64,000 nt of DNA from Firmicutes bacterium UBA5559 (GTDB lineage Bacteria > Bacillota > Clostridia > Peptostreptococcales > Anaerovoracaceae), in NCBI GenBank assembly GCA_002425705.1, contig DIMT01000001.1, forward strand, positions 46,221-110,220, read 5' to 3'. A program made the translations under genes and the position numbers. This document shows, piece after piece, positions 16,516-36,176 of the stretch. The first letter of the stretch is position 1. Each line of letters starts with the position of its first letter. The notes beneath the pieces were generated by a model, which was not told the origin of the DNA, searched no databases, and saw only the letters and a list, made by a program, of their open reading frames with translations.

Positions 16516-17300
16516 AAACGAGAATTTTATCGGGTATCATCATGCTTCCCCTGCTGGCCTTTGTCTTCGTCGGCGGCAAACTGCTCCTGGCCGGCTGTTT
16601 TCTGCTGAGCATCCTGGCACTCCGGGAGTTTTACAACGGGTTTTCCGGCCTCTCCATCACTCCGTCGGTACCCATCGGCATGGCTATGGCATTTTTGCTC
16701 TACACCGGGAATCTGCTGGGAATGAGCCAGGAGACCCATTGGGTCCTCTTCTGGTTCTTCTTGTCCGTCCTGCTTTCCCTACTGTATCTGTTTAAAATTG
16801 AGGAGCGGAAGCCGGAGGATATGCTGGCCACCATCGGCGGACTCTTTTATGTGGTCTTTTTCAGTTACCATATCATCCTGACGGAACAGACAGGCGAATA
16901 TCGCCTGCTGGTCTGGCTGATTTTCCTGACGGCCTTCGGAACAGACATTTTTGCCTACTTTACCGGTGTATTTCTCGGGAAGCACAAGCTCTGCCCGACC
17001 ATCAGCCCAAAGAAAACCATTGAAGGCTCGGTGGGAGGGATCCTGGGCAGTATGGCCTTATCGGGGGTTTTCGGTTATTTTGTGGTGCCGGAGCTGCTGA
17101 TCCACTGCCTGGTCATCGCTTTCCTGGGAGGGATCATTTCCCAGCTGGGAGACCTGACCGCTTCCATTTTCAAGCGTAAGATGGGGCTTAAGGATTATGG
17201 CAATCTGATTCCCGGCCATGGCGGTGTCCTGGACCGGATCGACAGCGTTCTCTTTACCGCTCCACTGGTTTACTATTACATTGAGTTCATTATCCGATAA
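16512..17300 (+). CDS. cdsA: Phosphatidate cytidylyltransferase
   Basis: Multi-TM protein with the signature SIFKRKMGLKDYGNLIPGHGGVLDRIDS. Confidence 0.95.
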   Translation: MKTRILSGIIMLPLLAFVFVGGKLLLAGCFLLSILALREFYNGFSGLSITPSVPIGMAMAFLLYTGNLLGMSQETHWVLFWFFLSVLLSLLYLFKIEERKPEDMLATIGGLFYVVFFSYHIILTEQTGEYRLLVWLIFLTAFGTDIFAYFTGVFLGKHKLCPTISPKKTIEGSVGGILGSMALSGVFGYFVVPELLIHCLVIAFLGGIISQLGDLTASIFKRKMGLKDYGNLIPGHGGVLDRIDSVLFTAPLVYYYIEFIIR

Positions 17301-17319
17301 GGATGCAATAGAGGTATTT

Positions 17320-18468
17320 ATGAAAACCATATCCATCTTAGGAAGCACCGGATCCATAGGCACCCAGGCTTTGGAAATCGTTTCCGCTAATCCGGATCGC
17401 TTTCGGATCAGTGCTTTGACTTGCGGCCGCAACATCAACCTGCTGTCCCATCAAATTAGGACCTTCTCCCCGGAAATCGCCGTGGCGGAAAGAGCAGAGG
17501 ATGCCCTGGAACTTCAGAAGATCCACCCCGGAACGGAAATCCTCTGGGGTGCTGAGGGATTAATTCGGGCTGCCGAGAGTCCCTGCGACCTTCTGCTCAA
17601 TTCCCTGGTGGGCATGATGGGTCTGGTTCCCACTTTCCACGCTATCTGTAAGGGAAAGGACATCGCCTTGGCCAATAAAGAAACCTTGGTGGCAGGGGGG
17701 CAGCTGATCATGGATGCGGTCCATAATGCAGGGGTCCGGCTTCTTCCTGTGGACAGTGAGCACAGCGCCATTTTTCAGTGCCTTCAGGGCAATTCCGGCA
17801 ATCCGGTCAAAAGGCTGATTCTGACTGCTTCCGGAGGGCCCTTTCGAGGCTGGACGAAAGAACAGCTCCGCCAGGTTACGTTAGAACAGGCTCTGGATCA
17901 CCCCAGATGGACCATGGGACCCAAGATCACGGTGGATTCGGCGACCTTGATGAACAAGGGGCTGGAAGTCATTGAAGCCCGATGGCTCTTTGATGTGGCG
18001 CCGGAGCAGATTCAAGTGGCCGTCCATCCCCAGAGCATTGTCCATTCCATGGTGGAATTCCGGGACAATTCTATTCTGGCCCAATTGGGTAATCCAGACA
18101 TGAGGGTGCCTATTGCCTATGCCTTTTCCTGGCCGGAACGGGTGCCCTTCCGGGAGTCGGGACTGGATCTTTTTGGCTCCGGAGCATGTCTGACTTTCGA
18201 AGAGGTGGATGAGCAAGCCTTCCCCTGCCTGGGTTATGCCAGAAAAGCCCTGGAATATGGAGACAGTTATGCTATTGCCTTGAACGGAGCCAATGAAGTC
18301 CTGGTAGATTTGTTTCTTCGGGGAAGGATTTCCTTTATGGATATTCCCGACAAACTGGGTATTATTATGGAAGAACATCGTCCGGTTTCCATCGACTGCA
18401 TCGACACGATTTTGCAGGTGGACCGGCAGATCAGAGAAGAGGCAGCCAGACTGGCTGCCGGGGTATAA
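17320..18468 (+). CDS. dxr: 1-deoxy-D-xylulose 5-phosphate reductoisomerase
   Basis: MKTISILGSTGSIGTQALEIV, LANKETLV, and PVDSEHSAIFQCL. Confidence 0.95.
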   Translation: MKTISILGSTGSIGTQALEIVSANPDRFRISALTCGRNINLLSHQIRTFSPEIAVAERAEDALELQKIHPGTEILWGAEGLIRAAESPCDLLLNSLVGMMGLVPTFHAICKGKDIALANKETLVAGGQLIMDAVHNAGVRLLPVDSEHSAIFQCLQGNSGNPVKRLILTASGGPFRGWTKEQLRQVTLEQALDHPRWTMGPKITVDSATLMNKGLEVIEARWLFDVAPEQIQVAVHPQSIVHSMVEFRDNSILAQLGNPDMRVPIAYAFSWPERVPFRESGLDLFGSGACLTFEEVDEQAFPCLGYARKALEYGDSYAIALNGANEVLVDLFLRGRISFMDIPDKLGIIMEEHRPVSIDCIDTILQVDRQIREEAARLAAGV

Positions 18469-18482
18469 CAGGGGAGAACTCT

Positions 18483-19475
18483 ATGACCATAGTCTATTCA
18501 ATCATTATATTTTGTATCCTGATTTTCGTCCACGAACTGGGCCATTTTGCCGTCGCCAAGGCTACCGGCATCAAGGTCAAGGAATTTGCCCTGGGCATGG
18601 GACCGGCCATCTTCAAGAAAACCAAAGGGGAAACCCTTTATTCCCTCCGGATCTTTCCTATTGGCGGTTTCTGTGCTATGGAAGGGGAGGATGAGGAATC
18701 GGAGGACGACCGGGCATTTAACAACAAGCCATTCCGGGTCAAGGCTCCGGTCTTAGTGGCCGGCTCTGCCATGAACCTGCTCCTGACGATTCTGATCCTT
18801 TCCATGGTGGTCTTTTCCTACGGATTGCCCTCCACCACCCTGGAACAGATTTCACCGGAGAGTCCGGCCGCTTCAGCAGGCCTGCAGCCGGGGGACCGGC
18901 TGGTTGCCATCAATGAACTGGAAATCAAAGACTGGGAACAGGTATCCGCTGCAGTTGCAACTTCGGAAGGAAATCCCATTCCGGTGGAAGTAATCCGGGA
19001 GGGCAGCCCTGTAACAGTCACCCTGACTCCCGTAGAGGAGGAGGGAAGGCTGATCATCGGCATATCCCCCGAATTTCACAAGAAACCGATCAAATCAATC
19101 CAATATGGGTTCCAGGCCACCTGGCAGATGGGAGCCATGATGCTGGATGTGATCGGGCAGCTATTCACCGGAGATGTATCAGCCAAGGAACTGATGGGCC
19201 CGATAGGCATCGTGGGAGCAGTTGGTGACAGCGCGGAACATGGCTTTGTTTATGTGGCCCAGCTGACGGCTCTGATCAGCCTGAACCTGGCCATCGTTAA
19301 CATGCTGCCCTTCCCGGCGCTGGACGGAGGAAGACTTTTACTGCTGGTGATCCGTAAGGTTACCGGAAAGGCCATTTCCGATGAAGTGGAAGGAAAAATC
19401 CATCTGGTGGGCTTTGCCTTGCTGATGGGGCTGATGATTTATGTCACTTATCAGGATGTGCTGAGGCTCTTCTAA
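18483..19475 (+). CDS. rseP: RIP site-2 zinc metalloprotease RseP/RasP (M50)
   Basis: HELGHF (HExxH) in TM1, a PDZ segment (GLQPGDRLVAINE), and C-terminal NMLPFPALDGG. Confidence 0.92.
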   Translation: MTIVYSIIIFCILIFVHELGHFAVAKATGIKVKEFALGMGPAIFKKTKGETLYSLRIFPIGGFCAMEGEDEESEDDRAFNNKPFRVKAPVLVAGSAMNLLLTILILSMVVFSYGLPSTTLEQISPESPAASAGLQPGDRLVAINELEIKDWEQVSAAVATSEGNPIPVEVIREGSPVTVTLTPVEEEGRLIIGISPEFHKKPIKSIQYGFQATWQMGAMMLDVIGQLFTGDVSAKELMGPIGIVGAVGDSAEHGFVYVAQLTALISLNLAIVNMLPFPALDGGRLLLLVIRKVTGKAISDEVEGKIHLVGFALLMGLMIYVTYQDVLRLF

Positions 19476-19490
19476 GAAAGCGGGTACCCC

Positions 19491-20561
19491 ATGACAAAGA
19501 AAGTTTACTGCGGAAACGTGGCCATCGGTGGCGGCGCTCCCGTATCCATACAGTCCATGACCAACACGGACACCAGAAACGTATCGGCCACCCTGGATCA
19601 GATCTCCAGGCTTCAGGAAGCCGGTTGTCAGATCGTCCGGCTGGCTGTTCCCGACCTGGAGGCGGCAGAAGCCTTCGGTCGGATCAAGAAAGCAGCAAAG
19701 GTTCCGCTGGTGGCAGATATCCATTTTGATTACCGTCTGGCCCTGGAATCCATCCGTCAGGGAGCAGACAAGATCCGCATCAATCCCGGCAACATCGGTG
19801 ACCGGGACCGGGTTCTTCAGGTAGTACGGGCGGCAGCGGAAAGGCAGATTCCCATCCGGATCGGGGTCAATTCCGGCTCCCTGGAAAAGGATCTTCTGGA
19901 AAAGTATCAGGGAGTTTCAGCCCAGGGACTGGCAGACAGCGCCCTTCGGAACGTCCGGATGGTGGAGGAGATGGGCTTTGATGATATCGTCGTCTCCCTG
20001 AAGGCTTCCAACGTCCGGCTCAATCAGGATGCCCACCAGCTGGTGGCAGCTTCCACCGACCATCCCCTTCACATCGGCATCACCGAATCGGGAACCGTCA
20101 CCTCCGGCCGGATCAAGTCGGCCATCGGCATCGGAGCACTCCTTTTAGCCGGCATCGGCGACACCATGCGGGTTTCTCTGACGGGAGATCCGGTCAGCGA
20201 AGTGCTGCTGGCCAAGGAAATCCTTCAGGTGGTCGGTCTCCGGGGGTCGGGTATCAATCTGGTTTCCTGTCCCACCTGCGGCAGGACTCAGGTAGATTTG
20301 GAGAAGATTGCCCGGGAGGTTGAAGAAAAATCCAAAAGAATTGCCCTGGACCGGGAGGAAAAAGGGCTGCCCAGCCTGACGGTGGCCGTCATGGGCTGTG
20401 CCGTCAACGGACCGGGGGAAGCCAGAAGCGCCGACGTGGGCGTAGCCTGCGGCACCGGCAAGGGAGTCCTCTTTAAAAGGGGAGAAATCATCAAAACCGT
20501 ATCGGAAGAAGACATCGTAGCAGAATTACTAAAGGCGGTAGAACACTATGAAGACCTATAA
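19491..20561 (+). CDS. ispG: 4-hydroxy-3-methylbut-2-enyl diphosphate synthase
   Basis: GGGAPVSIQSMTNT, VRLAVPD, CPTCGRT, and MGCAVNGPGEA. Confidence 0.95.
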   Translation: MTKKVYCGNVAIGGGAPVSIQSMTNTDTRNVSATLDQISRLQEAGCQIVRLAVPDLEAAEAFGRIKKAAKVPLVADIHFDYRLALESIRQGADKIRINPGNIGDRDRVLQVVRAAAERQIPIRIGVNSGSLEKDLLEKYQGVSAQGLADSALRNVRMVEEMGFDDIVVSLKASNVRLNQDAHQLVAASTDHPLHIGITESGTVTSGRIKSAIGIGALLLAGIGDTMRVSLTGDPVSEVLLAKEILQVVGLRGSGINLVSCPTCGRTQVDLEKIAREVEEKSKRIALDREEKGLPSLTVAVMGCAVNGPGEARSADVGVACGTGKGVLFKRGEIIKTVSEEDIVAELLKAVEHYEDL

Positions 20562-20976
20562 AGCCAGTCACATGATCAAATCTGAGGACCTGAACCATCA
20601 TCAGAACCTCTATGCCGGAAGGGCCATCGAATGGATGATGGAATCTTCCTTCATCGCAGCCGTGGGAGAACACAAGAACAAGCACGGCCTGCTCTATAAA
20701 AACACCCATCAGTTTAATTTTTTCAGCCCCGTGGATCCGGGGGAGATCATCACCTATGAGAGCACCGTGGTCCGGACCGGAAAAACCAGCTTTACCATCC
20801 ACATCGATGTGATTTCCGAAGAAACGGGAAGGAAAAAGGCGGAGGGCTATACCACCTTCGTCACCATCGATGAACAGAGCCGCCCGGAGGCCCATGGCAT
20901 CCGGCTGGACGAAACAGACAGAGAAGAGGAGCTGAAGTGGAGAAAAGAAGCGGATGCTTTTTTCTCCGGGAAATAG
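20548..20976 (+). CDS. Hotdog-fold acyl-CoA thioesterase
   Basis: 142 aa with LNHHQNLYAGRAIEWMMES...FNFFSPVDPGEIITYESTVVRTGKTSF, matching the acyl-CoA hydrolase pattern. Confidence 0.65.
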   Translation: MKTYKASHMIKSEDLNHHQNLYAGRAIEWMMESSFIAAVGEHKNKHGLLYKNTHQFNFFSPVDPGEIITYESTVVRTGKTSFTIHIDVISEETGRKKAEGYTTFVTIDEQSRPEAHGIRLDETDREEELKWRKEADAFFSGK

Positions 20977-20979
20977 AAC

Positions 20980-23900
20980 ATGAAAAATCTGATCGAAAGC
21001 AACATCCATTGGAATAAAATAGGCAGCCATCCCAAGGAATCCTATTCCTTTCATCTGGGGAAGGCAAAAATGTCAAAGGACGGTTCAGTTCTGACCCTGG
21101 CGGTGGAACTGAATTTTGTTGTGCCCTATGAGGACATCCTGCGGATCAAGGCCCTGATCATCAACCAGGTTCCGGATTTGGTCAAGGTGGATTTCCAGTT
21201 TCATTACCGGGAAATGATCCTGAGACCAGAGGAGATCCTCCGACACTACATCGAGTATATGATTGAAGAAGTCAACGGGGAATATGCCCCCCTGACCAAG
21301 ACCATCCTGCCGGAGGAATATGCTTTGGAGGGAGACAGCCTCACCATTTACGCCCTGGGAAACCTGGCGGTGGAACAGCTCAATCACCGGGTTTCACCCC
21401 TGTTCCGTCAGCTTTTGGAAGCCAACATGGGACTTTCTCTCCAGGTTCGGTTCGAAAACCACGATGATTCCTATTCCAAAGTTTCCAGTCAGAAAAAAGC
21501 CCTGACAGAAACCGAAGCCCGGGAAATGGCCCAGGTTCAGAAATCAGCGGTAGCTGCTCCGAAGAAATCGCCAGAACCCCAGGAAAAGAGTTGGGGGAAA
21601 AAACGATCCTCCAAGGAAGAACCGGCCTGCGGCAGCCAGATTATGGGGAAACCCTTTGCCGGAGACCCGGATCCCATGCAGAGCCTGAACACCGAATCAG
21701 GAACGGTGGTCATCGAAGGGATCTTGTTCCGAAAGGAATCCCGTACCATCCGCAGCGACAAGAAGCTGGTAACCCTGTTGGTCACCGACAAGACCACCTC
21801 CCTTTGCCTCAAGGCCTTTGTATCTCCCGGTAAATGGGAGGAGATCGACGAACTGCTCAACCCGGGGGACGGCATCCGGGTCCGGGGCATCGTGGAATGG
21901 GACACCTATGAAAATCAGTTGGTGGTTATGGTGAAGGACATTCAGAAGCACCAGAAGGAAGCCAAAACCGACAAGGCAGAGAAAAAACGGGTGGAGCTCC
22001 ATGCCCACACCAAGATGAGCGCCATGGACGGCCTCAATGAAGTGTCGGAGCTGATCCGGACCGCAGCAGCCTGGGGACATCCGGCGGTAGCCATCACCGA
22101 CCACGGGGTAGTACAAGCCTTTCCGGAAGCGCCCAAGGTGGTGAAAAAGAACAAGCTGGACATCAAGGTGATCTACGGTCTGGAAGGTTACCTGCTGGAC
22201 GACCGGGATAAGATCGGAGAAGACGGAACCATTGATTACAAGTCCTCCGGTACCTATCACGTCATCATTTTAGCCCAAAACCAGGAGGGGCTCCGAAACC
22301 TGTACAAGCTGGTTTCCATCTCCCACCTGGATTATTTCTATAAAAAGCCCAGGATTCCCAAATCTGTCCTCGCCGCCCACCGGGAAGGACTGATCATCGG
22401 CTCTGCCTGCGAGGCGGGGGAAGTATATCAGGCGGTTCGGAAGGGAAACCCGGATATTCAGGAAATCGTTGACTTTTATGACTACCTGGAAATCCAACCC
22501 ATCATCAACAATCAATTCCTCATCGACAACGGCTCGGTGAAGGATGAAGAGGAGCTTCGGGACATCAACCGGCGGATCGTCCGTCTGGCAGAGGATGCCG
22601 GAAAACTGGTTGCCGCTACCTGCGATTCCCATTACACCACCCCGGAGGAAGCTTTGTACCGGAAAATCCTCATGGCGGGGCAGGGATACAAGGACATCGA
22701 AGGGGACAAAGGACTGTACCTTCGGACCACCGACGAAATGCTGGAGGAGTTCAGTTATCTGGGCCGGGATGCTGCCTGGCAGGTGGTAGTAGAAAATACC
22801 AATCGGATCGCCGAAATGGTGGAGGACGTCAAACCCATTGCTTCCGGTAAGTTCCCTCCCAAGATCGACCGGGCCGAGGAAATCCTCCGGGAAACCTGCA
22901 TGAAGCGGGCCTGGGAGATGTACGGCAATCCCCTGCCCTATGACGTGGAAAACCGTCTGGAGCGGGAGCTCAATTCCATTATCAACAACGGCTATGCGGT
23001 GATGTACGTTTCCGCTGAGATGCTGGTGAAAAAATCTCTGGAGGACGGTTATCTGGTCGGTTCCCGGGGTTCCGTCGGTTCCTCCTTTGCCGCCACTATG
23101 GCCGGCATCACCGAGGTAAACCCCCTGCCTCCCCACTATATCTGCGGCGGATGCAAGCATTTTGAATGGGGAGACAACAACGAATACGACTGCGGAGTGG
23201 ATATGCCGGAAAAGCATTGCCCGGACTGCGGACTGCTGATGAAACGGGAAGGCTTTGACATCCCCTTTGAAGTTTTTTTAGGCTTCGAAGGAGACAAGGA
23301 GCCGGATATCGACTTGAACTTCGCCGGCGAATATCAGAGCACCGCCCACAAATACGTGGAAGAAATCTTCGGACGGGAAAATGTTTACCGGGCCGGGACC
23401 ATTGGCACCATTGCCAGCAAGACGGCCTATGGCTTTGTTCGCAAGTATTTTGAAGAGCGGGAGCAGAACATCAATAAGTGGGAAATCGAACGGCTGACCG
23501 AATGCTGCACCGGAGTCCGGCGTACCACAGGACAGCATCCCGGTGGAATCATCATTGTCCCCAGGGGTCACGAAATCTATGAATTCTGTCCGGTTCAGCG
23601 ACCGGCCAACGACATGAATACGGACATCATCACCACCCACTTTGACTATCATTCCATCGATGAAAACCTGCTGAAGCTGGATATTCTGGGCCACGACGTG
23701 CCCTCCATGATCCGCCAGCTCCAGGATATGACGGGAGTGGATCCCCTGACCTTGCCTTTAAATGACGATAAGGTCAAGGGCCTGTTCCTCGGCATCAGTT
23801 CCCTGGATATCCAGGAAGAAAACTATAAATATCGCCACGGCAGCTTTGGTATTCCTGAGTTTGGCACCAAGTTCGTTCGGCAGATGCTGGATGACACCAG

Positions 23901-24723
23901 ACCCAGCCGCTTCGGGGACCTGGTCCGGATTTCCGGATTTTCCCACGGTACCGATGTGTGGCTGAACAACGCCCAGGAATTTATCCGAAGCGGAGTAGCC
24001 ACCATGAAGGACGCCATCTCCACCCGGGATGACATTATGAATTATCTGATTCACAAGGGGCTGCCCAACAGCAACGCCTTCAAGATCATGGAAAACGTCC
24101 GGAAGGGGAAGGGCCTGAGCGAAAAGGACATGGAGCTGATGCGGGAGCACGACGTGCCGGAATGGTACATCGATTCCTGCAACAAGATCAAGTACATGTT
24201 TCCCCGGGCCCATGCGGTGGCCTACGTTATGATGTCCTACCGGATCGCTTATTACAAGGTCTATTATCCCAGGGAGTTTTATGCCACTACTTTCACCACG
24301 AAAGTAAATGACTTCGATGCAGAGACTATACTCAAGGGTCCCAAGGCGATTTTGGAAAAGATCGAGTCCATCGAGAACAAGGGGAAGAACGCCACGAAAA
24401 AAGAAGAAGACAGTGTGACGGTCATGGAACTGGCCTATGAAATGCTCTGCCGGGGGTACGACTTTAAGGAAGCATCTTTGGAGCATTCAGACCCGGTCAA
24501 ATTTAAAGTTCTGGAGGATAAGGTGCTGCTGCCCCTGATGGCGCTTACCGGAGTAGGGGAAACCGCAGCCCGGCTGATTGCCGAAGAGCACCGAAAACGG
24601 CCATTCCATTCGGTGGAAGAGATTCAAAAACGGGCACGGGCCAACAAAACCGCCATCGAGGCACTGAAGCAGCATGGTGTATTGACCGGATTGCCGGAAA
24701 CGGATCAGCTCTGTCTCTTTTAG
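20980..24723 (+). CDS. polC: DNA polymerase III alpha subunit, PolC type, apparently lacking the inserted 3'-5' exonuclease domain
   Basis: 1247 aa. It has the PolC N-domains, an OB fold, a PHP domain (VELHAHTKMSAMDG, ITDHGVVQAFPEA, GLEGYL, YHVIILAQNQEGLRNLYKLVS), the Zn finger CGGC...CPDC, and the polymerase core (GSRGSVGSSF, QHPGGIIIVP, KLDILGHD). See the findings for the missing exonuclease insert. Confidence 0.9.
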   Translation: MKNLIESNIHWNKIGSHPKESYSFHLGKAKMSKDGSVLTLAVELNFVVPYEDILRIKALIINQVPDLVKVDFQFHYREMILRPEEILRHYIEYMIEEVNGEYAPLTKTILPEEYALEGDSLTIYALGNLAVEQLNHRVSPLFRQLLEANMGLSLQVRFENHDDSYSKVSSQKKALTETEAREMAQVQKSAVAAPKKSPEPQEKSWGKKRSSKEEPACGSQIMGKPFAGDPDPMQSLNTESGTVVIEGILFRKESRTIRSDKKLVTLLVTDKTTSLCLKAFVSPGKWEEIDELLNPGDGIRVRGIVEWDTYENQLVVMVKDIQKHQKEAKTDKAEKKRVELHAHTKMSAMDGLNEVSELIRTAAAWGHPAVAITDHGVVQAFPEAPKVVKKNKLDIKVIYGLEGYLLDDRDKIGEDGTIDYKSSGTYHVIILAQNQEGLRNLYKLVSISHLDYFYKKPRIPKSVLAAHREGLIIGSACEAGEVYQAVRKGNPDIQEIVDFYDYLEIQPIINNQFLIDNGSVKDEEELRDINRRIVRLAEDAGKLVAATCDSHYTTPEEALYRKILMAGQGYKDIEGDKGLYLRTTDEMLEEFSYLGRDAAWQVVVENTNRIAEMVEDVKPIASGKFPPKIDRAEEILRETCMKRAWEMYGNPLPYDVENRLERELNSIINNGYAVMYVSAEMLVKKSLEDGYLVGSRGSVGSSFAATMAGITEVNPLPPHYICGGCKHFEWGDNNEYDCGVDMPEKHCPDCGLLMKREGFDIPFEVFLGFEGDKEPDIDLNFAGEYQSTAHKYVEEIFGRENVYRAGTIGTIASKTAYGFVRKYFEEREQNINKWEIERLTECCTGVRRTTGQHPGGIIIVPRGHEIYEFCPVQRPANDMNTDIITTHFDYHSIDENLLKLDILGHDVPSMIRQLQDMTGVDPLTLPLNDDKVKGLFLGISSLDIQEENYKYRHGSFGIPEFGTKFVRQMLDDTRPSRFGDLVRISGFSHGTDVWLNNAQEFIRSGVATMKDAISTRDDIMNYLIHKGLPNSNAFKIMENVRKGKGLSEKDMELMREHDVPEWYIDSCNKIKYMFPRAHAVAYVMMSYRIAYYKVYYPREFYATTFTTKVNDFDAETILKGPKAILEKIESIENKGKNATKKEEDSVTVMELAYEMLCRGYDFKEASLEHSDPVKFKVLEDKVLLPLMALTGVGETAARLIAEEHRKRPFHSVEEIQKRARANKTAIEALKQHGVLTGLPETDQLCLF

Positions 24724-24762: not shown

Positions 24763-24791
24763 TTGACATTTTTTGCTTTATTATCTACAAT
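24763..24791 (+). promoter_or_regulatory. SigA-type promoter of the SARP-like regulator gene
   Basis: TTGACA (24763-68), 17 nt spacer, TACAAT (24786-91). Confidence 0.6.
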
Positions 24792-24813
24792 GGGAGCAAG
24801 GGAGGGAATGCCC

Positions 24814-26049
24814 ATGCAAGAGGAATACAAAATCACCTTTTTTAAAGAATTTTCCCTGAGCCAGGGAGGCCATCTGATTTTAGAAGGCCCACTGAAAAGC
24901 AGTAAGGTTTTTCAACTGCTTCAGTATTTTCTTGCCCATCGTTCCAAATCCTTTACGAAAGAGCACCTGATCGAGCTCCTTTACGGGGATGAATTTGTGG
25001 ATAATCCCACCAATGCGCTGAAAATCATCGTTCACCGGCTCCGGAAGCAGATCCTGTCCCTGGGACTGCCGGAAATGGAATACATCGTCAACTACAATGG
25101 AAAATACGGATGGAATCCGGAAATCCCCTGTCAGGTCGACATTGAGATCTTTGAACATACCATGAAGCGGGCCCTCCATCCCAATGCACCGGAGGAGGAG
25201 TCCCTTAAGCTGATGCTGGAGGCCATCCACCTGTATCAGGGGCCTTTCCTGGGCAACAGCCTGACGGAAAGCTGGGTGATTCCCATGCGGGTCCGGTACG
25301 AGGAAGCCTATAAACACTTGATAGGTCGAGCCTGCCAGCTGATTCGGAAGAAGGAGGACTTCATCCTGCTTCACTATATCGCGTCCCATGGACTGGAAAT
25401 CTATCCGATGGATGAGGATTTCTCCCGGGAAAAGATATTTGCTTTGCATCAATTGGGCAAGACCAAGGAAGCCATCGGGGAGTATAACCGGATCGTGGAC
25501 CTGATTTTTAACGAATACGGCGTCAGCCCGTCGGATGAACTGCAGTCCCTTTACGATAAGGTAGCGGCAACGACCCAGAAAAGCGCCATCAATGTGGATG
25601 AAGTTAAAAATTTCCTGGAAGAAGGGGAAGATGATGATGGGGCTTATTTCACCAATTATCAAAACTTTGCAGACAGCTATCGTTTTTTAGTTAGAGGGCT
25701 GGAGCGAAGCGGTCTTTCCGCATTCCTGATGCTCTGCACCATGGTCAACAAACAAGGAAAGCTGCTGGATGAGGAACTCCAGCTGGCCCACGCTTCCGAT
25801 GCGCTGAAGACAGCCTCCAAGGCTTCTTTAAGAAGAGGAGACCTTTATACCCGGTACAGCCCTTCCCAGTATCTCTATCTGCTGATCGGCATCAACCAGG
25901 AAAACTGCAGCATCGTTTTTGACCGTATCGAAAAGCATTTCCGGAAGGAGTTCCGGGGAAATCAGGTCAACCTGAAATACAAGGTGGTTTCTGCAGCCGA
26001 CATTAAAAAGCTCTTTGGCGACAAAAGGGGCCAACAGGATGCAAAATAA
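24814..26049 (+). CDS. SARP-like transcriptional regulator: OmpR-type winged helix + BTAD + degenerate GGDEF-like C-terminal domain
   Basis: ATG 24814 lies 7 nt after AGGGAGGGA. The N-terminus (FLAHRSKSFTKEHLIELLYGDEFVDNPTNALKIIVHRLRKQI) is a Trans_reg_C-like wHTH. The middle (DIEIFEH...LYQGPFL...ALHQLGKTKEAIGEYNRIVDLIFNEYGVSPSDELQSLYDKV) matches BTAD. The C-terminal part (about 145 aa) follows the GGDEF fold pattern, with RRGD-LYTRY-SPSQY where RxxD-x5-GGDEF would be. Confidence 0.7.
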   Translation: MQEEYKITFFKEFSLSQGGHLILEGPLKSSKVFQLLQYFLAHRSKSFTKEHLIELLYGDEFVDNPTNALKIIVHRLRKQILSLGLPEMEYIVNYNGKYGWNPEIPCQVDIEIFEHTMKRALHPNAPEEESLKLMLEAIHLYQGPFLGNSLTESWVIPMRVRYEEAYKHLIGRACQLIRKKEDFILLHYIASHGLEIYPMDEDFSREKIFALHQLGKTKEAIGEYNRIVDLIFNEYGVSPSDELQSLYDKVAATTQKSAINVDEVKNFLEEGEDDDGAYFTNYQNFADSYRFLVRGLERSGLSAFLMLCTMVNKQGKLLDEELQLAHASDALKTASKASLRRGDLYTRYSPSQYLYLLIGINQENCSIVFDRIEKHFRKEFRGNQVNLKYKVVSAADIKKLFGDKRGQQDAK

Positions 26050-26083
26050 ACCGGATTCTGATTCAATATGACACAATTTCGAC

Positions 26084-26111
26084 AAAACGCCTCGAAAAGG
26101 GGCGTTTTTTT
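26084..26111 (+). terminator. Rho-independent terminator after the regulator gene
   Basis: AAAACGCCTC-GAAAA-GGGGCGTTTT stem followed by a T-run. Confidence 0.85.
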
Positions 26112-26129
26112 ATTGCGCAAAACCCGCAG

Positions 26130-26186
26130 GTTTCAACATGCTACTGGTTTTTTGAAACTGGCAGTGAAACTAAAACGGCATATGAT
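26130..26186 (+). promoter_or_regulatory. Candidate activator-dependent promoter of adhesin A (TGAAACT direct repeats plus -10)
   Basis: TGAAACT (26153-59), N5, TGAAACT (26165-71), N9, TATGAT (26181-86). An inverted copy GGTTTCA lies at 26130-36. The same geometry recurs at 29392..29425. Confidence 0.55.
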
Positions 26187-26265
26187 AGTTAAACAAAAGG
26201 GATGAGTTTCTCCCAGTCACGAAACAGAGACATACTTGATTTTATGAGAAGGAAGGAGAGGTATT

Positions 26266-28554
26266 ATGAGTAGTAAAAGAAAAAGCTGGATGAGGGTGGT
26301 GGCCTTCACCATAATGCTCACCCTGGTCTTGATGACCGGAGCCACTGGGCTGGTAGTAGCCGAAGAGGGAGGCTTCGAAGGACCGCCTCTGGAGGAGAAT
26401 GGAATTATCCAGTCGTCGGGGTCGGAAGATCCATCCGGTGATGACGGTTCTGGTAAAATGGATGAGGGATTGCCTGAGGGAGAAGGGCAAACAAGAACCA
26501 TGAGTTTTTTTAAACCGGAAAAACCACCCAAGCTAGAGATTAAATTAGAAAAGTGGGTTAATCCGGATAAGGTTTTCTTTCAAGATGACATGGTGACTTT
26601 TTTCTTCAAGGTTACAAATAAGAGTGAAAGAAGCCTTAGGAATGTGGTTCTTGTGGATGAAGATTTAGGCCTTGTAATTACGATTGGTGAATTAAGTAAA
26701 GAGAGGTGGCATGGATCGGTCTACACAACAGAGGTGGCTGTTAAGCTGGATCCTGACAAATGGGATGGGAATAAGTACATCAATGAGGCGTCAGTATCCG
26801 GCACAGCAAGGGTAGCGGACAATGATATTATTGTATCAGATTCAGCCTGGGCAAAAGTAGAATTGAAACCGATCATTGGATTCGCCAAAGAAGCGGATCG
26901 TGAAACTGTTTTCTTTAAGGACTCCACGGTAACCTATACCTTTACGGTAACAAATATGAGTAATAAGCCAATTGCGGATGTGATGATTATTGATCCTGCT
27001 ATTGGCCTTGAAATTGATGCAGGCTCATTGGGAATTCATGGAAAGGGCAAAACCTTCACTACAAAAGTAGCGGTTGATCTAAGTGAGAATTTATGGGACG
27101 GCAATTCATTTAACAATACTGCCACGGTTCAGGGAACCGTTCCCTGGGGCGAAGGGACCAGATCAGTCAGTGCCGATGCTTCGTATACCGTGAAGTATCA
27201 GGCTCCTTTGACCTTAGAAAAGACGGTTGATAAAAGCACAGTTAATTTCAAGGACGAAAAGGTAACTTATACATTCAAGGTTAAAAATAACCTTTGGTGG
27301 GATCTCCAAAATGTAAAGGTTTATGATGAAACCATCGATGCAATTCTGGATTTCGGCAAAGTACGAAAGGGACAATGGGAAACTAGGACATTTGCATTTG
27401 ATTTGACAAATGCAGAATGGGATGGGGATCAATTCATCAACACTGCAAGAGTGGAAGCTCCTTTTATGAGAGGAGATACACCGGTAACTCTTTCGGCAGT
27501 TGATACGGCTGCTGTAACTTACGTACCACCCATGACCCTGGAAAAATCAGTAGATCCTGGAACTGTATACTCACAAGATGGAATTGTAAACTATACCTTC
27601 AAAGTGTGGAATAATCTTTCGGACAATACGATTAAGAATGTAGTTCTGACGGATACTCTCTTGGATTTAACGGTGAATGCCGGGGACATCAAAGCAAAGA
27701 GTAAATGGAATAAAGGCTATTATACCACCACTGTTGCTATTGACTTGTCTTTAATCCCTGAAGATTCCTGGGATGGCAATCAATTGATTAATGAAGCTAC
27801 AGCCATGGGCTGTTACGAAAAAATCAAATGGGCTCCGAGAGGAAACGAGGGAGACTTCCAAACGATGAAACATTGGTCTCCTCCTACGGAATGCATCACG
27901 TTGACAGCAGTGGACACGGCTACCCTGATCTATGATCCGACCACATTGACGATTAAAAAAGATGTTCCCAACGTAACCGATTCTGCAGCAGCCTTTGATG
28001 TTCTGATTTCGTGGGAAGAAGAATGGGTCTATGATGAGGATTCAGGAGACAATGAAATCCCCCAATACCGTACCATGGTGATGAATACCACCACGAAGTC
28101 TATCCAGGGTGTAATTTCGGAATTGGAGCCCTTTGTCATGGATGCGGTTCCTGGAGTTTTGTACACAGTGGCAGAAACTACAAAAGCAGGCTATACCACA
28201 TCAGAAACCTCTTTGCAGATTACCCTGGAGCCAGGTGAAGATGGAGTGATCACCTTTGTGAACACCAAGGATGTCATAGAGGAAGAAAGCTCTGGCGGTG
28301 GCGGCACCAATCAAGGTGGCAGCAGTGGTGGCGGTGGAGATACGGATACCAATACCATAGCTACGGTTCCTGACGGTCAGGTACCCTTAGCCCAGGATCC
28401 TGTTACTGTTGAAACATTAGCCGATTTACCCATTCCGCTAGCTGATGTTCCTCAAACCGGAAACAATGCATTGCTGAATCTCTGGTGGATTTTGCTAGCT
28501 TTGTCCGGATTTGGAATCCTGGTTGTCGTAAATAGGAAACCGGAAAAAATTTAA
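26266..28554 (+). CDS. Sortase-anchored surface protein A (four DUF11/CARDB-like repeats, a Cna-B/prealbumin-like domain, and a VPQTG sorting signal)
   Basis: Signal peptide MSSKRKSWMRVVAFTIMLTLVLMTGATGLVVA. Four modules of about 105 aa each end in WDG(N/D)xxxNxAxV. A Gly-rich linker follows. The C-terminus is PIPLADVPQTG, then a hydrophobic span, then RKPEK. The gene is AT-rich compared with its flanks. Confidence 0.85.
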   Translation: MSSKRKSWMRVVAFTIMLTLVLMTGATGLVVAEEGGFEGPPLEENGIIQSSGSEDPSGDDGSGKMDEGLPEGEGQTRTMSFFKPEKPPKLEIKLEKWVNPDKVFFQDDMVTFFFKVTNKSERSLRNVVLVDEDLGLVITIGELSKERWHGSVYTTEVAVKLDPDKWDGNKYINEASVSGTARVADNDIIVSDSAWAKVELKPIIGFAKEADRETVFFKDSTVTYTFTVTNMSNKPIADVMIIDPAIGLEIDAGSLGIHGKGKTFTTKVAVDLSENLWDGNSFNNTATVQGTVPWGEGTRSVSADASYTVKYQAPLTLEKTVDKSTVNFKDEKVTYTFKVKNNLWWDLQNVKVYDETIDAILDFGKVRKGQWETRTFAFDLTNAEWDGDQFINTARVEAPFMRGDTPVTLSAVDTAAVTYVPPMTLEKSVDPGTVYSQDGIVNYTFKVWNNLSDNTIKNVVLTDTLLDLTVNAGDIKAKSKWNKGYYTTTVAIDLSLIPEDSWDGNQLINEATAMGCYEKIKWAPRGNEGDFQTMKHWSPPTECITLTAVDTATLIYDPTTLTIKKDVPNVTDSAAAFDVLISWEEEWVYDEDSGDNEIPQYRTMVMNTTTKSIQGVISELEPFVMDAVPGVLYTVAETTKAGYTTSETSLQITLEPGEDGVITFVNTKDVIEEESSGGGGTNQGGSSGGGGDTDTNTIATVPDGQVPLAQDPVTVETLADLPIPLADVPQTGNNALLNLWWILLALSGFGILVVVNRKPEKI

Positions 28555-28562
28555 AGACTAAG

Positions 28563-28584
28563 GGGGCTGCCATCCGGCGGCCCC
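28563..28584 (+). promoter_or_regulatory. GC-rich intercistronic stem-loop between adhesin A and its sortase
   Basis: GGGGCTGCC-ATCC-GGCGGCCCC, 9 bp with one G-U pair. The T-tail is weak (TGTTTC), so it looks like an attenuator or stability element rather than a full terminator. Confidence 0.5.
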
Positions 28585-28606
28585 TGTTTCAAAGGAGGTG
28601 GTTACG

Positions 28607-29356
28607 ATGAAGAGGATCTGGATGATCCGCCTGGGAATTGTGTTGATTCTTCTAGCCTGTATTCTCTTGCTTTATTCCTTGTTTGGACCGGGCAACAACG
28701 GGAAGGAAGAGTTCCAGACATCTTTGCAGGAAGAGGAGCTGCCAATATCGGCCGATGGGGAGCAGCCCCTCTACCCGGCTCCTTCTGTAACCATTGACTT
28801 TGATGGGTTACTGGCTATCAACGATGAGACAACCAGTTGGATCTGGATTCCCGATTCGCCTATCACTTACCCGGTGATGCAGGGGCTGGACAATCAGAAG
28901 TACCTGACCCGCTCCTATAAGGGGACTTATGACCGGAATGGCAGTGTATTCATGGATTACCGATGTCAGCCGGATTACAGCAGCAGCCACACCATTCTCT
29001 TTGGCCATAATATGCTGACGGAAGATATTTTCGGCACACTGGAGCGCTATAAGGACCTTGAATACCTCAACAGACATTCTCTGATCTATATCCTGAAACC
29101 GGAGGAATACCAAGTGTACGAAGTCTTCTCCATTCACGGGACGGATGCTACCGGAGAAACCTACCGGGTGAATTTTGAAACGCCAGACCACTTTCGGCAG
29201 TACCTGGAAGAAATGAAGGAGCTATCCATCCATCCTTTGGGGCCTGATCCGGAATCGAAAGACCAGATACTGACCCTTTCTACTTGTACTTCTCACGGAA
29301 ATAAGAACGATCGTTTCGTTGTCCAGGCCGTTTTGCAGGAAACTGTAAAACTTTAA
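28607..29356 (+). CDS. srtB: Class B sortase
   Basis: ATG 28607 lies 8 nt after AGGAGG. It has an N-terminal TM anchor, TILFGHNM (catalytic His), LTLSTCTSHG (catalytic Cys in TLSTC), and DRFVVQA (Arg). Confidence 0.85.
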   Translation: MKRIWMIRLGIVLILLACILLLYSLFGPGNNGKEEFQTSLQEEELPISADGEQPLYPAPSVTIDFDGLLAINDETTSWIWIPDSPITYPVMQGLDNQKYLTRSYKGTYDRNGSVFMDYRCQPDYSSSHTILFGHNMLTEDIFGTLERYKDLEYLNRHSLIYILKPEEYQVYEVFSIHGTDATGETYRVNFETPDHFRQYLEEMKELSIHPLGPDPESKDQILTLSTCTSHGNKNDRFVVQAVLQETVKL

Positions 29357-29391
29357 AATAGAGTTCAAAATGTTTCATAATTCTGAGATGC

Positions 29392-29425
29392 TGAAACCTG
29401 TATTGAAACCTGAAACCGTTATAGT
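29392..29425 (+). promoter_or_regulatory. Candidate activator-dependent promoter of the small-protein/adhesin B operon (TGAAACC repeats plus -10)
   Basis: TGAAACC (29392-98), N5, TGAAACC (29404-10), N9 containing a third TGAAACC (29411-17), then TATAGT (29420-25). Confidence 0.55.
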
Positions 29426-29487
29426 AAAAATAAGAAGAAAACAAGTTGTTTGAAATGAACGGAAATTCAACGAAGGAGGTGGTAAGT

Positions 29488-29991
29488 TTGCAGCCAAGCA
29501 ATATCCGGATGTTTTCCCGGAATATTATTTGTAACTGCGTCAACCAATGTGGACCTAATGGCATACAAGGAGAGCTGCACCACCTTTACTCCGAAGAACC
29601 GATCCGATACCGGGACGCATTTGAAATGCTGATCCAGATGGATAAGTTCTATGATAACCTGAATTTTCCGATGGCTTCCACCGAAACCCGATCTTTTATC
29701 AAAAGGAAGCCCAGTCAAAATAGGAAAGAGATGATAAAAATGGAGCAGGATGAAAAACTATTAAAGGTTAAGGGCAGCAAGGGCACATTCCTGATACAGG
29801 TACAATACCGACAGAACGCCACCTGGCAAGGCAAGGTGGTCTGGGCAGAAGAAAACAAGACACAATATTTCAGAAGCGCACTGGAACTAATGAAACTGAT
29901 TGATGGAGCTCTGAACAAGGGCAACGAGGAAGCGACAATAGAATTCGAAGAAAGTGATAATCCAAAAGATAAGAAATACGCTACCAGCTAA
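29488..29991 (+). CDS. Hypothetical cytoplasmic protein with internal duplication, unknown function
   Basis: The ORF track gives 29446..29991. The best SD is GAAGGAGGTG, which favours TTG 29488, with ATG 29509 as an alternative. There is no signal peptide. Two halves share the motif [YF]R[DS]A[FL]E[ML][LM]xx[MI]D (EPIRYRDAFEMLIQMD versus TQYFRSALELMKLID). Confidence 0.5.
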   Translation: MQPSNIRMFSRNIICNCVNQCGPNGIQGELHHLYSEEPIRYRDAFEMLIQMDKFYDNLNFPMASTETRSFIKRKPSQNRKEMIKMEQDEKLLKVKGSKGTFLIQVQYRQNATWQGKVVWAEENKTQYFRSALELMKLIDGALNKGNEEATIEFEESDNPKDKKYATS

Positions 29992-30031
29992 AAGGGAGGT
30001 TATCAAGAGCGTATGGGAAAGGAGAATGGAG

Positions 30032-31831
30032 ATGAACATTCAGACAAAGAGGTGGGCAAGGCCCCTGGCGCTTTTCATAGCGCTGACAATGGTGATGATG
30101 TACTCCTTTGGGGGAGTGGTGTTTGCATCAATTAATGATGTTAGAGTTCATTATCACGGACCAAGTGATGATGGAGTTGTAGTTGTAATTACGACTGTAT
30201 CATCAGAAGGTGCTATTGATCAAACCTTTACAGCAGAAGCTAAGAGACATAAAAAGAGTAGTCATTACGATGGAAAATTTTCTCCAAGCATTGACCAAGT
30301 TTTATCGAATGGCGATAAACTCATTGATGAAGGTGTAGTTACAAGAGCATACACAACAATAAATGGTATTTACACAGAATTAACAGTTGATCATAGTTCA
30401 GCTATCGGAAATAACTCGGCAAATATTAAGGTTGGACCACCACCAACTGCAAAAGTTTATAACCTAATGATAACCAAGACGGTAGACAAGCCAGTAGTTC
30501 CCCTTGATGGCGCTGTTAAGTTTACTATTACTGTTACAAATATCGGGAATACATTAGTGAGCGGCGTAGTTGTAACAGACGAAATTCCTGCAGGCTTATT
30601 GATAACGGCCACTTATTCAGCAGTTGGAACATTTGCAGGCGATGTCTGGACAATCGGTGATTTAGCGAGTGGTCAACAAGTAACATTAGAGATTGATGCC
30701 ATTACTACTGATGTAGATGAGATCACCAATACTGCCACTGTAAGTTTTGATGGTGATGATGTTGATGAGGATGATAACACAGCAAGTGCGACAGTAGATG
30801 TTTTAGTACCATATGACTTATCTCTTACAAAGTCAGTAAATCCTGGATCTGTAGGTATAAGTGAAGAAGCTCTTTTCACTATTAAAGTAGAGAACAAGGG
30901 ATTCTATGAAGCAACTAATGTTGTTGTCAAGGATGTATGGCCAGATGGGCTTGAATTTATCGGTGCAACATCCAGCGATGCTATACAGTTCAATGCTGAG
31001 GATATGACATGGACCCTTGGAAGTTTAGCTCCTGGAGCAACTAAAACAATTACTTTATCAGGTATTTCAGCAGTAGCCGATGATTATACGAATACTGCAT
31101 CTGTTACCTTTAGCGGAATCGACCAGAATCCAAATGATAACTCTGATACAGCAACGCTTAAAGTGCTTCTGGAAAGAGACCTTGGAATCACAAAGGTTGC
31201 AGCACCTACCAATATTCTGCTTAATGAAAGCACAGTATTTACAGTGACTATAACAAATAATGGTACTGAAACTATTAATAATATTTTCGTTGAAGATGTT
31301 ATGGAAGCTGGATTAAGTATTTCGGCAATCGGCTCAGATGATTTTAAAGATGGAATATGGGATGTCGGAACTCTGGAATCCGGAGAAAGCAAGATTTTAA
31401 CAATAGCCGCAATTGGAACAACAGTTGGTTCCCTTCAGAATCAGGTTGAGATTGTGACTCTGGGTGATGGCAATAACGAAGTAATTGAATATGTTCCATT
31501 TGAAGATGATAACCAGTCTAACAACTCTGAAAAAGCTACCGTAACAGTCTCCGCAGGAGGCGGTGGAGGTGGCGGCGGCGGTGGAACCGGTGGAGGCGGT
31601 GGTGGTGGAACCACTATCCAGGAAACTACTCCTCCATTAACCAATATCCCCGACGGAGAAACTCCGTTAGTAGAAGCCCCGGAAGTAATGCTTGAAGAGC
31701 AGCCCATTCCGCTGGCAGACGTTCCCCAGACTGGTGACAACACCAACATCTGGTTGCTGCTGGCCCTGATGATGGGATCCGGAGCAGGAATCGTCCTCCT
31801 GGGAAGGCGAAAAGAAACAGTTGAAAAGTAA
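30032..31831 (+). CDS. Sortase-anchored surface protein B (three DUF11 repeats, a poly-Gly linker, and a VPQTG sorting signal)
   Basis: ATG 30032 lies 7 nt after GGAG. Signal peptide MNIQTKRWARPLALFIALTMVMMYSFGGVVFA. The canonical DUF11 repeat pattern is present (L.ITKTVDKP...F.ITVTN.G...V.V.D..P.GL......G...WT.G.L..G....L......NTA.V). The linker is G10-T-G7. The C-terminus is PIPLADVPQTG, then a hydrophobic span, then RRKE. Confidence 0.85.
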   Translation: MNIQTKRWARPLALFIALTMVMMYSFGGVVFASINDVRVHYHGPSDDGVVVVITTVSSEGAIDQTFTAEAKRHKKSSHYDGKFSPSIDQVLSNGDKLIDEGVVTRAYTTINGIYTELTVDHSSAIGNNSANIKVGPPPTAKVYNLMITKTVDKPVVPLDGAVKFTITVTNIGNTLVSGVVVTDEIPAGLLITATYSAVGTFAGDVWTIGDLASGQQVTLEIDAITTDVDEITNTATVSFDGDDVDEDDNTASATVDVLVPYDLSLTKSVNPGSVGISEEALFTIKVENKGFYEATNVVVKDVWPDGLEFIGATSSDAIQFNAEDMTWTLGSLAPGATKTITLSGISAVADDYTNTASVTFSGIDQNPNDNSDTATLKVLLERDLGITKVAAPTNILLNESTVFTVTITNNGTETINNIFVEDVMEAGLSISAIGSDDFKDGIWDVGTLESGESKILTIAAIGTTVGSLQNQVEIVTLGDGNNEVIEYVPFEDDNQSNNSEKATVTVSAGGGGGGGGGGTGGGGGGGTTIQETTPPLTNIPDGETPLVEAPEVMLEEQPIPLADVPQTGDNTNIWLLLALMMGSGAGIVLLGRRKETVEK

Positions 31832-31858
31832 GTACGGTAAAGTATAATTAAAGATGTG

Positions 31859-31890
31859 TAAGGGTTACCTTCGGGTAACCCTTATTTATT
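31859..31890 (+). terminator. Rho-independent terminator/attenuator between adhesin B and sortase 2
   Basis: 11-bp stem TAAGGGTTACC/GGTAACCCTTA with a TTCG loop, followed by TTTATT. Confidence 0.75.
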
Positions 31891-31962
31891 AGAAATTGTG
31901 TCATTTGGCCTACATTGCCAAAAGACCGCCAACTGACAGACCTGCTTACAGAGGTGGTATTT

Positions 31963-32727: not shown

Positions 32728-32790
32728 CAAAGATTTTAATTTTGTGCTATGATAAAGGACAAAAGTGAAAAAATCATACAGGAGGAAAGC

Positions 32791-34101: not shown

Positions 34102-34103
34102 AA

Positions 34104-34520
34104 ATGGGAATCAAACAATTATCGATTTTTATTGCCAATGAAGCAGGGACCCTGGCCGATGTTACCCGGATCTTCCGGGAACATGAAATCGACATACGGG
34201 CCATCTCCGTTTCCGATACCGTGGATTACGGAATCCTGCGGGTGGTGGTCAGCGAGCCGGAACGGGCCGTGGAAGAACTGGCTAAAGAGGGAATCGTATC
34301 CAAACTCAGCGAGGTCCTGGCCGTAGATCCGGAAGACCGACGGGGCAGCTTGAATGACATCTTCACGCTGCTGGGAGACAACGGCATCAACATCGACTAT
34401 ATCTATTCTTTTCTGGTTCGGGAGGACGGGGCCCAGCTTTTTGTCATAAAAGTGACAGATCAGCAGAAGGCCCAGGAACTGTTGATGGCAAATGGTGTGC
34501 GAATCATAAAAAATATCTGA
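34104..34520 (+). CDS. ACT domain-containing protein (tandem ACT), copy 1
   Basis: 138 aa. LSIFIANEAGTLADVTRIFREHEIDIRAISV plus a second ACT-like half. It lies 3 nt after paaK copy 1. Confidence 0.75.
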   Translation: MGIKQLSIFIANEAGTLADVTRIFREHEIDIRAISVSDTVDYGILRVVVSEPERAVEELAKEGIVSKLSEVLAVDPEDRRGSLNDIFTLLGDNGINIDYIYSFLVREDGAQLFVIKVTDQQKAQELLMANGVRIIKNI

Positions 34521-34527
34521 TTTTTTG

Positions 34528-34556: not shown

Positions 34557-34569
34557 AGGAATAACTTCA

Positions 34570-36161: not shown

Positions 36162-36176
36162 GGGAGGACGAAACCT

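Follow-up and report, generated by a model that had tools for sequence, protein, structure and literature searches.

A clostridial PolC without the inserted exonuclease domain and with a complete PHP metal site

Canonical PolC, the DNA polymerase III α subunit known from Bacillus subtilis and Staphylococcus aureus (structures 9qpc, 9qrl, and 9qrn), carries a DEDDh exonuclease domain of about 190–200 amino acids inserted in its PHP domain. This Exo insertion is absent in 6% of PolC sequences, essentially all of them from Clostridia and Negativicutes, and the share of such exonuclease-less (exo-less) proteins amounts to 16% of the PolCs in systems that combine PolC with DnaE1 (Timinskas et al., Nucleic Acids Research 2014, PMC3919608). 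The same survey found all nine PHP metal positions to be strongly conserved in PolC. The present analysis concerns an exo-less PolC encoded by the uncultured Firmicutes bacterium UBA5559, from the Anaerovoracaceae, within a stretch of 64,000 nucleotides (contig DIMT01000001.1, positions 46,221 to 110,220), hereafter called the window. A preliminary description of this DNA treated the missing domain as a novelty. It is not one, since the protein is a member of the exo-less PolC variant of Clostridia and Negativicutes published in 2013/2014, and the idea of PHP proofreading in PolC is also already in the literature. What is added here is the inference of multiple losses, the decayed exonuclease remnants found in other PolCs, the absence of a DnaQ gene nearby, and the equal invariance of the PHP ligands in PolCs that retain the exonuclease domain (exo-bearing PolCs).

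Several described proteins can be set beside the window PolC. With the exo-less PolCs of Timinskas et al. it shares the order of N-terminal domain, OB, PHP, Pol3, and tandem helix-hairpin-helix domain, or (HhH)2, the absence of the Exo insertion, a clostridial host, and conserved PHP ligands. Nothing essential differs between the two, and the number of losses, the decayed remnants, and an experimental test of proofreading are not part of that paper. Engineered counterparts are the variants of Geobacillus kaustophilus PolC (3f2b, 3f2c, and 3f2d) and S. aureus PolC deleted for both the N-terminal and Exo domains (ΔNΔExo), in which a short linker occupies the loop that also holds the linker of the window PolC. 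Such engineered ΔExo PolCs are active polymerases, with a kpol of 330 per second for the S. aureus enzyme (PMC3656037). Unlike the G. kaustophilus construct, the window protein is natural, keeps its N-terminal domain, and has an aspartate (D549) in place of N743. DnaE1 from Mycobacterium tuberculosis and the Pol III α subunits from Thermus thermophilus and Thermus aquaticus resemble it in their nine-residue trinuclear site, the lack of an integral DnaQ domain, a similar PHP fold, and a comparable loop between ligands 5 and 6. By contrast, they are DnaE-type polymerases (OB and CTD at the C-terminus) whose PHP domains are about 26–28% identical to that of the window PolC, and their exonuclease activity has been demonstrated, whereas for the window PolC we infer it. 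Finally, canonical PolC belongs to the same PRK00448 equivalog and has the same core locus neighbours as its clostridial relatives, but carries the DEDDh domain that the window PolC lacks. In Bacilli its PHP ligands are often degenerate (PMC12926913), as was also seen in the survey of representatives presented below.

The polC gene product and its junction

The polC gene occupies positions 20980–24723 of the window, on the forward strand like all domains and residues located below, and its open reading frame (ORF) encodes 1247 amino acids. The product scored 1520.7 bits against the PolC equivalog NF001688/PRK00448 of NCBIfam (cutoff 873) and 1369 bits against TIGR01405 (cutoff 1043). At E ≤ 1, Pfam returned a weak match to PolC-NII as well as matches to OB, PHP, DNA_pol3_alpha, the finger domain, and HHH_6. 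The domain order of PolC is kept: an N-terminal domain is followed by an OB domain that precedes PHP (residues 243–322, positions 21706–21945; PF01336, E 2.8e-06), by the two parts of the PHP domain (residues 339–408 at 21994–22203 and residues 419–620 at 22234–22839), by the polymerase core with palm, thumb, and fingers (22882–24114; PF07733 and PF17657), by (HhH)2 (residues 1165–1238, 24472–24693; PF14579, E 2.7e-10), and by a C-terminal β-clamp binding motif. The Pfam PHP match (PF02811) spans residues 339–500; the N-terminal part of the domain was delimited with the help of ligand mapping, and the C-terminal part with the 3f2b alignment and an AlphaFold2 model. The polymerase core includes a Cys4 zinc finger (C722/C725/C747/C750, 23143–23229) whose columns are invariant in relatives. 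The acidic motifs PDIDLNF (D776 and D778) and KLDILGHD (D901) are likewise invariant in the alignment of relatives, and their codons were verified; these three aspartates are taken to be the catalytic triad of the polymerase. The clamp motif, QLCLF (24706–24720), fits a consensus of the QL[S/D]LF type whose positions 1, 4, and 5 weigh most (Timinskas 2014, PMC3919608), and its columns Q1243 and F1247 are invariant across the aligned relatives. Since all these other modules are intact, polymerisation on the sliding clamp would be expected to proceed as in an ordinary PolC.

What the 1247-residue protein does not have is the hallmark of canonical PolC, the DEDDh exonuclease inserted in PHP. Its match to PRK00448 consists of two stretches, the second of which places residues 418–1247 on profile positions 607–1444, and about 190 profile positions are skipped. 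No RNase_T domain (PF00929) was found in the protein by Pfam at E ≤ 1, a hidden Markov model (HMM) built from 41 PolC exonuclease domains had no match in a six-frame translation of the window, and tblastn of the window with the exonuclease domain of the exo-bearing relative P0087 gave, beyond the PHP flank of polC, only weak matches. In an alignment with the exo-bearing relatives P0084, P0087, P0099, and P0114, about 197 extra residues lie in these relatives exactly between LLDD and IDYK, and it is this segment that holds their motifs FDLETTGL (Exo I), HNADFD (Exo II), and HHRAVDDA (Exo III). The window protein has in its place the linker RDKIGEDGTI (residues 409–418, 22204–22233), the residue count between D408 and D419 being 11, as against 198–201 in exo-bearing proteins, and the flanks GLEGYLLDD and IDYK..GT.H are conserved with the same relatives. 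The best match in the PDB is the engineered G. kaustophilus PolC 3f2b, to which residues 234–1247 align in a single stretch, whereas the alignment to the full-length PolC 9qpc splits into two stretches around the exonuclease domain. The preliminary description had reported a PolC of 1247 residues with no DnaQ insert and no exonuclease motif in the ORF, and had located the junction within a peptide VIYGLEGY...LYKLVS, which lies at positions 22168–22317; on all of these points it was accurate.

A segment missing from a single sequence could also reflect an assembly error, an in-frame deletion in one clone, or the onset of pseudogene decay. The identical 1247-residue protein is nevertheless encoded, with the same neighbours, on contigs from ENA, JGI, and Logan, that is, in at least three independent assemblies from different samples; relatives at 59–97% identity carry the same architecture and the same junction; and the ORF is uninterrupted, with conserved flanks on both sides of the junction. 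The assembly deletion that the preliminary description had raised as an alternative thus finds no support, and artefact explanations as a whole are effectively refuted, with a negligible probability left to them.

The architecture is shared by many relatives. The preliminary description had called for a survey of PolC lengths among them, and 116 of the 120 best homologue clusters (59–97% identity) have no PF00929 match on record, nearly all with lengths of 1230–1330 residues. The named members of these clusters belong to the Anaerovoracaceae (Clostridiales Family XIII) and include Sinanaerobacter chloroacetimidivorans, Anoxybacterium hadale, Anaerovorax odorimutans, and Aminipila. In GTDB species genomes, surveyed through 80 loci with no genome used twice, the complete PolC sequences include 37 exo-less ones, whose linkers measure 2–12 residues, and 40 sequences are exo-bearing (41 with P0087); two loci truncated by the contig end at the junction (L022 and L031), for which the exo-less label is unreliable, were left out. 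Within the clade of the window protein, 24 complete sequences from GTDB genomes have the exo-less architecture. A wider survey used residues 48–1247 as the query and, from a set of 1.84 billion proteins clustered at 50% identity, took the best 150 representatives; among the 144 that cover the PHP domain, 32 are exo-less, a frequency in a range similar to that of Timinskas et al., 103 are exo-bearing, and 9 have another insert. The position of the gene between dxr-rseP-ispG and rimP-nusA-infB identifies it as the orthologue at the canonical locus rather than an accessory copy. Judged from its sequence, the protein is almost certainly a genuine chromosomal replicative PolC of an uncultured member of the Anaerovoracaceae with an exo-less architecture.

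The PHP metal site and the history of the exonuclease domain

The crystallographic ligands of the PHP site in G. kaustophilus PolC are H346, H348, D355, H380, E405, H620, C670, N743, and H745 (Barros 2013, Table 1), and the consensus of PHP ligands reads H H D/H H E H C/H D/N H (Barros 2013). By homology to that protein, all nine are present in the window PolC in the form HHDHEHCDH, and their codons were verified: H341 (22000–22002), H343 (22006–22008), D350 (22027–22029), H375 (22102–22104), and E402 (22183–22185) in the N-terminal part of the domain, and H427 (22258–22260), C477 (22408–22410), D549 (22624–22626), and H551 (22630–22632) in the C-terminal part. The preliminary description had counted nine ligands correctly but had assigned one of them to D374 of ITDHG; the third ligand is instead D350 of SAMDG. 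A 2026 survey of bacterial polymerases in Nucleic Acids Research defines an "active" PHP domain by the pattern HHDHEH[C/H]DH (PMC12926913), and the window protein has this pattern at all nine positions. None of the nine ligands varies among the 37 complete exo-less GTDB sequences and two further exo-less homologues, sequences whose best-segment tblastn identity to the window PolC is 46–79%.

An AlphaFold2 model of residues 321–620 has a mean predicted local distance difference test score (pLDDT) of 89.6 and a predicted template-modelling score of 0.89, with a pLDDT of about 94 for the linker. Searched with Foldseek, the model matched 3f2b with a template-modelling (TM) score of 0.85 and a root-mean-square deviation of 1.9 Å over 300 alignment columns, which is the full length of the query; against full-length PolC 9qpc the alignment took 488 columns, with a gap of about 190. 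The PHP domain of T. aquaticus Pol III was matched with a TM score of 0.74, and that of M. tuberculosis DnaE1 with 0.72. The PHP barrel fold thus appears intact in the model. Between ligands 5 and 6, the window PolC has 24 residues, compared with 22 in T. aquaticus and 13 in Escherichia coli (numbering of Barros 2013, Table 1). This is the region that receives the exonuclease domain in PolC, in a loop corresponding to one that lines the substrate groove of M. tuberculosis DnaE1 beside the PHP site (Banos-Mateos et al.).

Neighbour-joining trees of the non-exonuclease part of PolC place the exo-less sequences in at least two distant groups. One consists of the Anaerovoracaceae, and the other of long-branched Oscillospiraceae and "Eubacteriales" metagenome-assembled genomes with different and shorter linkers. 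Within the Anaerovoracaceae, the sequences with a junction count of 9 residues (Anaerovorax, S. chloroacetimidivorans, and Anoxybacterium) are sister to the exo-bearing P0087, P0099, P0084, and P0114 with 94% bootstrap support, while the window PolC sits in a separate clade with a count of 11 residues and 100% support. A tree of NusA and InfB independently paired the exo-bearing Sinanaerobacter sp. ZZT-01 with the exo-less S. chloroacetimidivorans (100%) inside an exo-less assemblage. In ZZT-01 (CP141728.1), a PolC of 1454 residues with the exonuclease domain is encoded upstream of rimP-nusA-infB; in S. chloroacetimidivorans (JAGSND010000001.1), an exo-less PolC of 1260 residues occupies the equivalent position. 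The domain was therefore probably lost at least three times independently by precise deletion, twice within the Anaerovoracaceae beside an exo-bearing sister lineage, a count that rests on neighbour-joining trees only. A recent horizontal regain of the domain in the ZZT-01 group was considered as well and found no support: its exonuclease domain is about 48–50% identical to all those sampled, and the absence of a close donor is uninformative.

Traces of domain decay were found among the representatives. Nine of them (P0131, P0132, P0145, P0171, P0187, P0188, P0221, P0222, and P0223) have an insert of 131–275 amino acids at the exonuclease site that matches neither RNase_T nor the exonuclease HMM and from which the DEDDh catalytic motifs are gone. 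The inserts of P0222 and P0171 show weak collinear similarity to the exonuclease domain (E 2.6e-7 and 7e-4 across the two), and all nine proteins have the full HHDHEHCDH set. These inserts are probably decayed, catalytically dead DnaQ domains, and could plausibly represent a stage that precedes deletion. Such remnants may so far be unreported in PolC; the 2026 survey describes PHP, not DnaQ, as the inactivated domain of Pol III α subunits (PMC12926913). Repeated loss and decay of the DnaQ domain in PolCs with full PHP ligands suggest that this domain is dispensable in these lineages.

Which nuclease proofreads

An exonuclease acting in trans was searched for around polC. No DnaQ-like ORF was detected in the 64-kb window, either by tblastn with the exonuclease domain or with the exonuclease HMM on six-frame ORFs, and the HMM found none in the remaining exo-less loci, which were taken with as much as 10 kb on either side of polC where the contig allowed. 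Two weak tblastn matches in the window were rejected, one at 8683–9231 (E 1.4) that is antisense to an NFACT/RqcH gene and one at 54002–54214 (E 0.029) that lies within a GNAT acetyltransferase gene. Gene fission, by which the exonuclease would persist as a split-off neighbouring gene, was also rejected, the HMM from 41 domains having matched only exo-bearing polC genes across all loci. The window and the loci fetched from relatives yielded neither a second PolC nor a dnaE gene.

The account that we favour starts from a precise in-frame deletion of the DnaQ-type DEDDh domain from the PHP loop, in the ancestor of a large clade, that would have left an ordered loop of 10 residues in its place. 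The shortened enzyme would still polymerise DNA on the clamp. Its errors would be edited in cis by the trinuclear metal centre within its own PHP domain, the route taken by DnaE1 of M. tuberculosis and by Thermus Pol III, the deletion having given the loop that separates ligands 5 and 6 a DnaE1-like length. This account is favoured because the metal site is complete and has at position 8 an aspartate, not the asparagine of the inactive G. kaustophilus PolC, because the nine ligands are invariant across the exo-less lineages sampled, and because removal of the exonuclease domain leaves a loop of T. aquaticus-like length (24 versus 22 residues) at the site of the substrate groove. If PolC does have an active PHP proofreader, the repeated deletion of the DnaQ domain (at least three times) and its decay would be explained. 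That the PHP domain of the window PolC proofreads in cis is the most likely of the mechanisms considered but nonetheless a tentative proposal, somewhat less probable than its negation; a figure that blends the exo-less identity of the protein with cis proofreading comes close to, but stays under, an even chance. The broader proposal that the PHP exonuclease of PolC is active, and perhaps the primary 3'-5' proofreader, in Clostridia with PolC and DnaE1 is more doubtful, at about one chance in three.

Several observations weigh against PHP proofreading in PolC. The only PolC PHP domain assayed, that of ΔExo G. kaustophilus PolC, had no detectable exonuclease activity (Barros 2013; Banos-Mateos et al.), which was attributed to the asparagine at ligand position 8 (Banos-Mateos et al.). 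PHP exonuclease activity has been demonstrated for no PolC in the literature, where experimental work on natural exo-less PolCs was not found either, and the PHP domain additionally serves a structural purpose, stabilising the polymerase (Barros 2013). The nine ligands are equally invariant in 41 of the 41 exo-bearing clostridial PolCs examined, so that the complete set is the ancestral clostridial state and not a compensation for exonuclease loss. For the same reason, the key argument of the preliminary description, which had proposed proofreading by PHP or in trans, is weaker than stated; its proposal was reasonable, but the sequence evidence is less specific than it assumed. An apparent correlation between an intact PHP site and exonuclease loss among the representatives (28 of 32 exo-less versus 62 of 103 exo-bearing) was dropped as confounded by phylogeny, because the 41 exo-bearing clostridial PolCs are also intact. 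No substitutions common to two independent exo-less clades, looked for as a signature of PHP activation, were found. The polymerase region of exo-less PolC moreover diverges about 1.3 times faster relative to NusA and InfB than that of exo-bearing PolC: the median PolC/NusA+InfB divergence ratio (polC residues 430–1247; loci L008–L042 and the window) is 1.22–1.37 for exo-less and 0.93–0.95 for exo-bearing sequences, in a comparison of only 11 exo-less taxa and non-independent pairs. The faster rate fits a relaxed constraint or a reduced role equally well as a new function. Four fragmentary exo-less representatives (P0231, P0248, P0252, and P0256) have degenerate PHP ligands, e.g. HRSLENTDQ. 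Three of the four are truncated (854–904 residues), and P0252 has lost acidic residues of the palm (D-Q-N). These four could be accessory or phage-borne copies, or else pseudogenes. Finally, a trans-acting exonuclease or a second PolC may be encoded elsewhere in the genome, outside the 64 kb.

Such a factor is central to one alternative, in which proofreading is provided in trans by the PHP exonuclease of DnaE1 or by a stand-alone protein similar to DnaQ or ε, the PHP domain of PolC being a scaffold only, in keeping with its structural role. Where Clostridia have PolC, it was always accompanied in the 2014 survey by a DnaE-type polymerase, in nearly all cases DnaE1; in this DnaE1 the PHP site is perfect and a putative ε-binding surface is conserved (Timinskas 2014, PMC3919608). 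Bacterial proteomes contain on average more than three DnaQ homologues (PMC12926913), and trans proofreading between polymerases is documented in B. subtilis, but in the opposite direction. The searches described above, on the other hand, revealed neither a DnaQ-like ORF nor a dnaE gene near polC, and the invariance of nine ligands over deeply diverged exo-less lineages exceeds what a purely structural need usually entails; PHP sites have degenerated in DnaE3 and in some 40% of exo-bearing PolC representatives. We regard this alternative as rather unlikely.

The exo-less PolC could also be non-proofreading, with a reduced or specialised role, while DnaE1 with its active PHP domain would be the main high-fidelity replicase and mismatch repair would clear the remaining errors. 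Timinskas et al. had already raised this possibility, some Clostridia having DnaE1 only and all exo-less PolCs occurring in genomes with PolC and DnaE1 (PMC3919608). The elevated divergence ratio and the decayed remnants in other PolCs fit it as well, although that ratio comes from few and non-independent taxa. It agrees less well with the retention of the gene in the core dxr-rseP-ispG ... rimP-nusA-infB locus and with the invariance over long distances of the catalytic, zinc-finger, and clamp motifs and of the nine PHP ligands, which indicates that a working enzyme bound to the clamp is under strong purifying selection. A non-proofreading PolC therefore seems improbable, more so than proofreading in trans. 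Cis editing by the PHP domain is separable from these rivals only by biochemistry and whole genomes.

Genomic setting and significance

In the window, polC follows dxr, rseP, ispG, and a gene for a 4HBT-family thioesterase (17218–20976, forward strand), and the order dxr-rseP-ispG also precedes polC in S. chloroacetimidivorans. Further upstream are gmk, rpoZ, rpsB, tsf, pyrH, frr, uppS, and cdsA. The 4HBT gene (20548–20976, 142 amino acids) lies between ispG and polC, shares 14 nt with the end of ispG, and has a stop codon that ends 3 nt before the ATG of polC; S. chloroacetimidivorans has NfeD and Band_7 genes in its place. The usual downstream partners of polC, rimP-nusA-ylxR-L7Ae-infB-rbfA-nrnA-truB, were located by tblastn with the gene products of the S. 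chloroacetimidivorans locus at 36705–44332 on the forward strand, with rimP-nusA-infB at 36.7–41.9 kb. In both S. chloroacetimidivorans and Sinanaerobacter sp. ZZT-01, the block from rimP to truB lies directly 3' of polC; in the window, an insertion of about 12 kb (24763–36575) parts the two.

This insertion encodes a BTAD/Trans_reg_C regulator (24763–26049), surface proteins with CLIPPER repeats (26266–28554 and 29954–31831), sortases (28598–29356 and 31915–32727), and two pairs of an AMP-binding (acyl-CoA) ligase and an ACT protein (32749–36575), and its GC content falls to 0.41–0.46 at 26–32 kb. The insertion resembles an acquired island of sortase-dependent adhesin or pilus genes. Beyond the rimP block, the window contains an argCJBD cluster (49291–53644) followed by the GNAT gene and a small ORF with an Smr domain, and then two adjacent genes for large proteins with a Sulfatase domain (650 and 664 amino acids, 54622–58565). 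Genes for RmuC, a metallophosphoesterase, a phosphopentomutase-like protein, and a pyrimidine-nucleoside phosphorylase come next.

The value of this locus lies in convenient test organisms rather than in discovery, the central observation being one that was already published. PolC and DnaE1 together run the replisomes of Clostridioides difficile, Clostridium botulinum, and much of the gut Clostridia, and the question of which nuclease proofreads there becomes testable in this clade. A natural PolC that combines the absence of DnaQ with a perfect PHP site is a clean substrate on which to ask whether the PHP domain of PolC edits DNA, and the exo-bearing Sinanaerobacter sp. ZZT-01 and the exo-less S. 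chloroacetimidivorans form a natural pair for comparing the contribution of each proofreader and for asking whether the DnaQ domain is a burden or an advantage. PolC is also an antibiotic target, of the ibezapolstat class, and replication fidelity shapes mutation rates in lineages that are abundant in the gut and in anaerobic digesters. Should PHP proofreading by PolC prove true, the exo-less PolC of the Anaerovoracaceae would be the first PolC-type PHP exonuclease.

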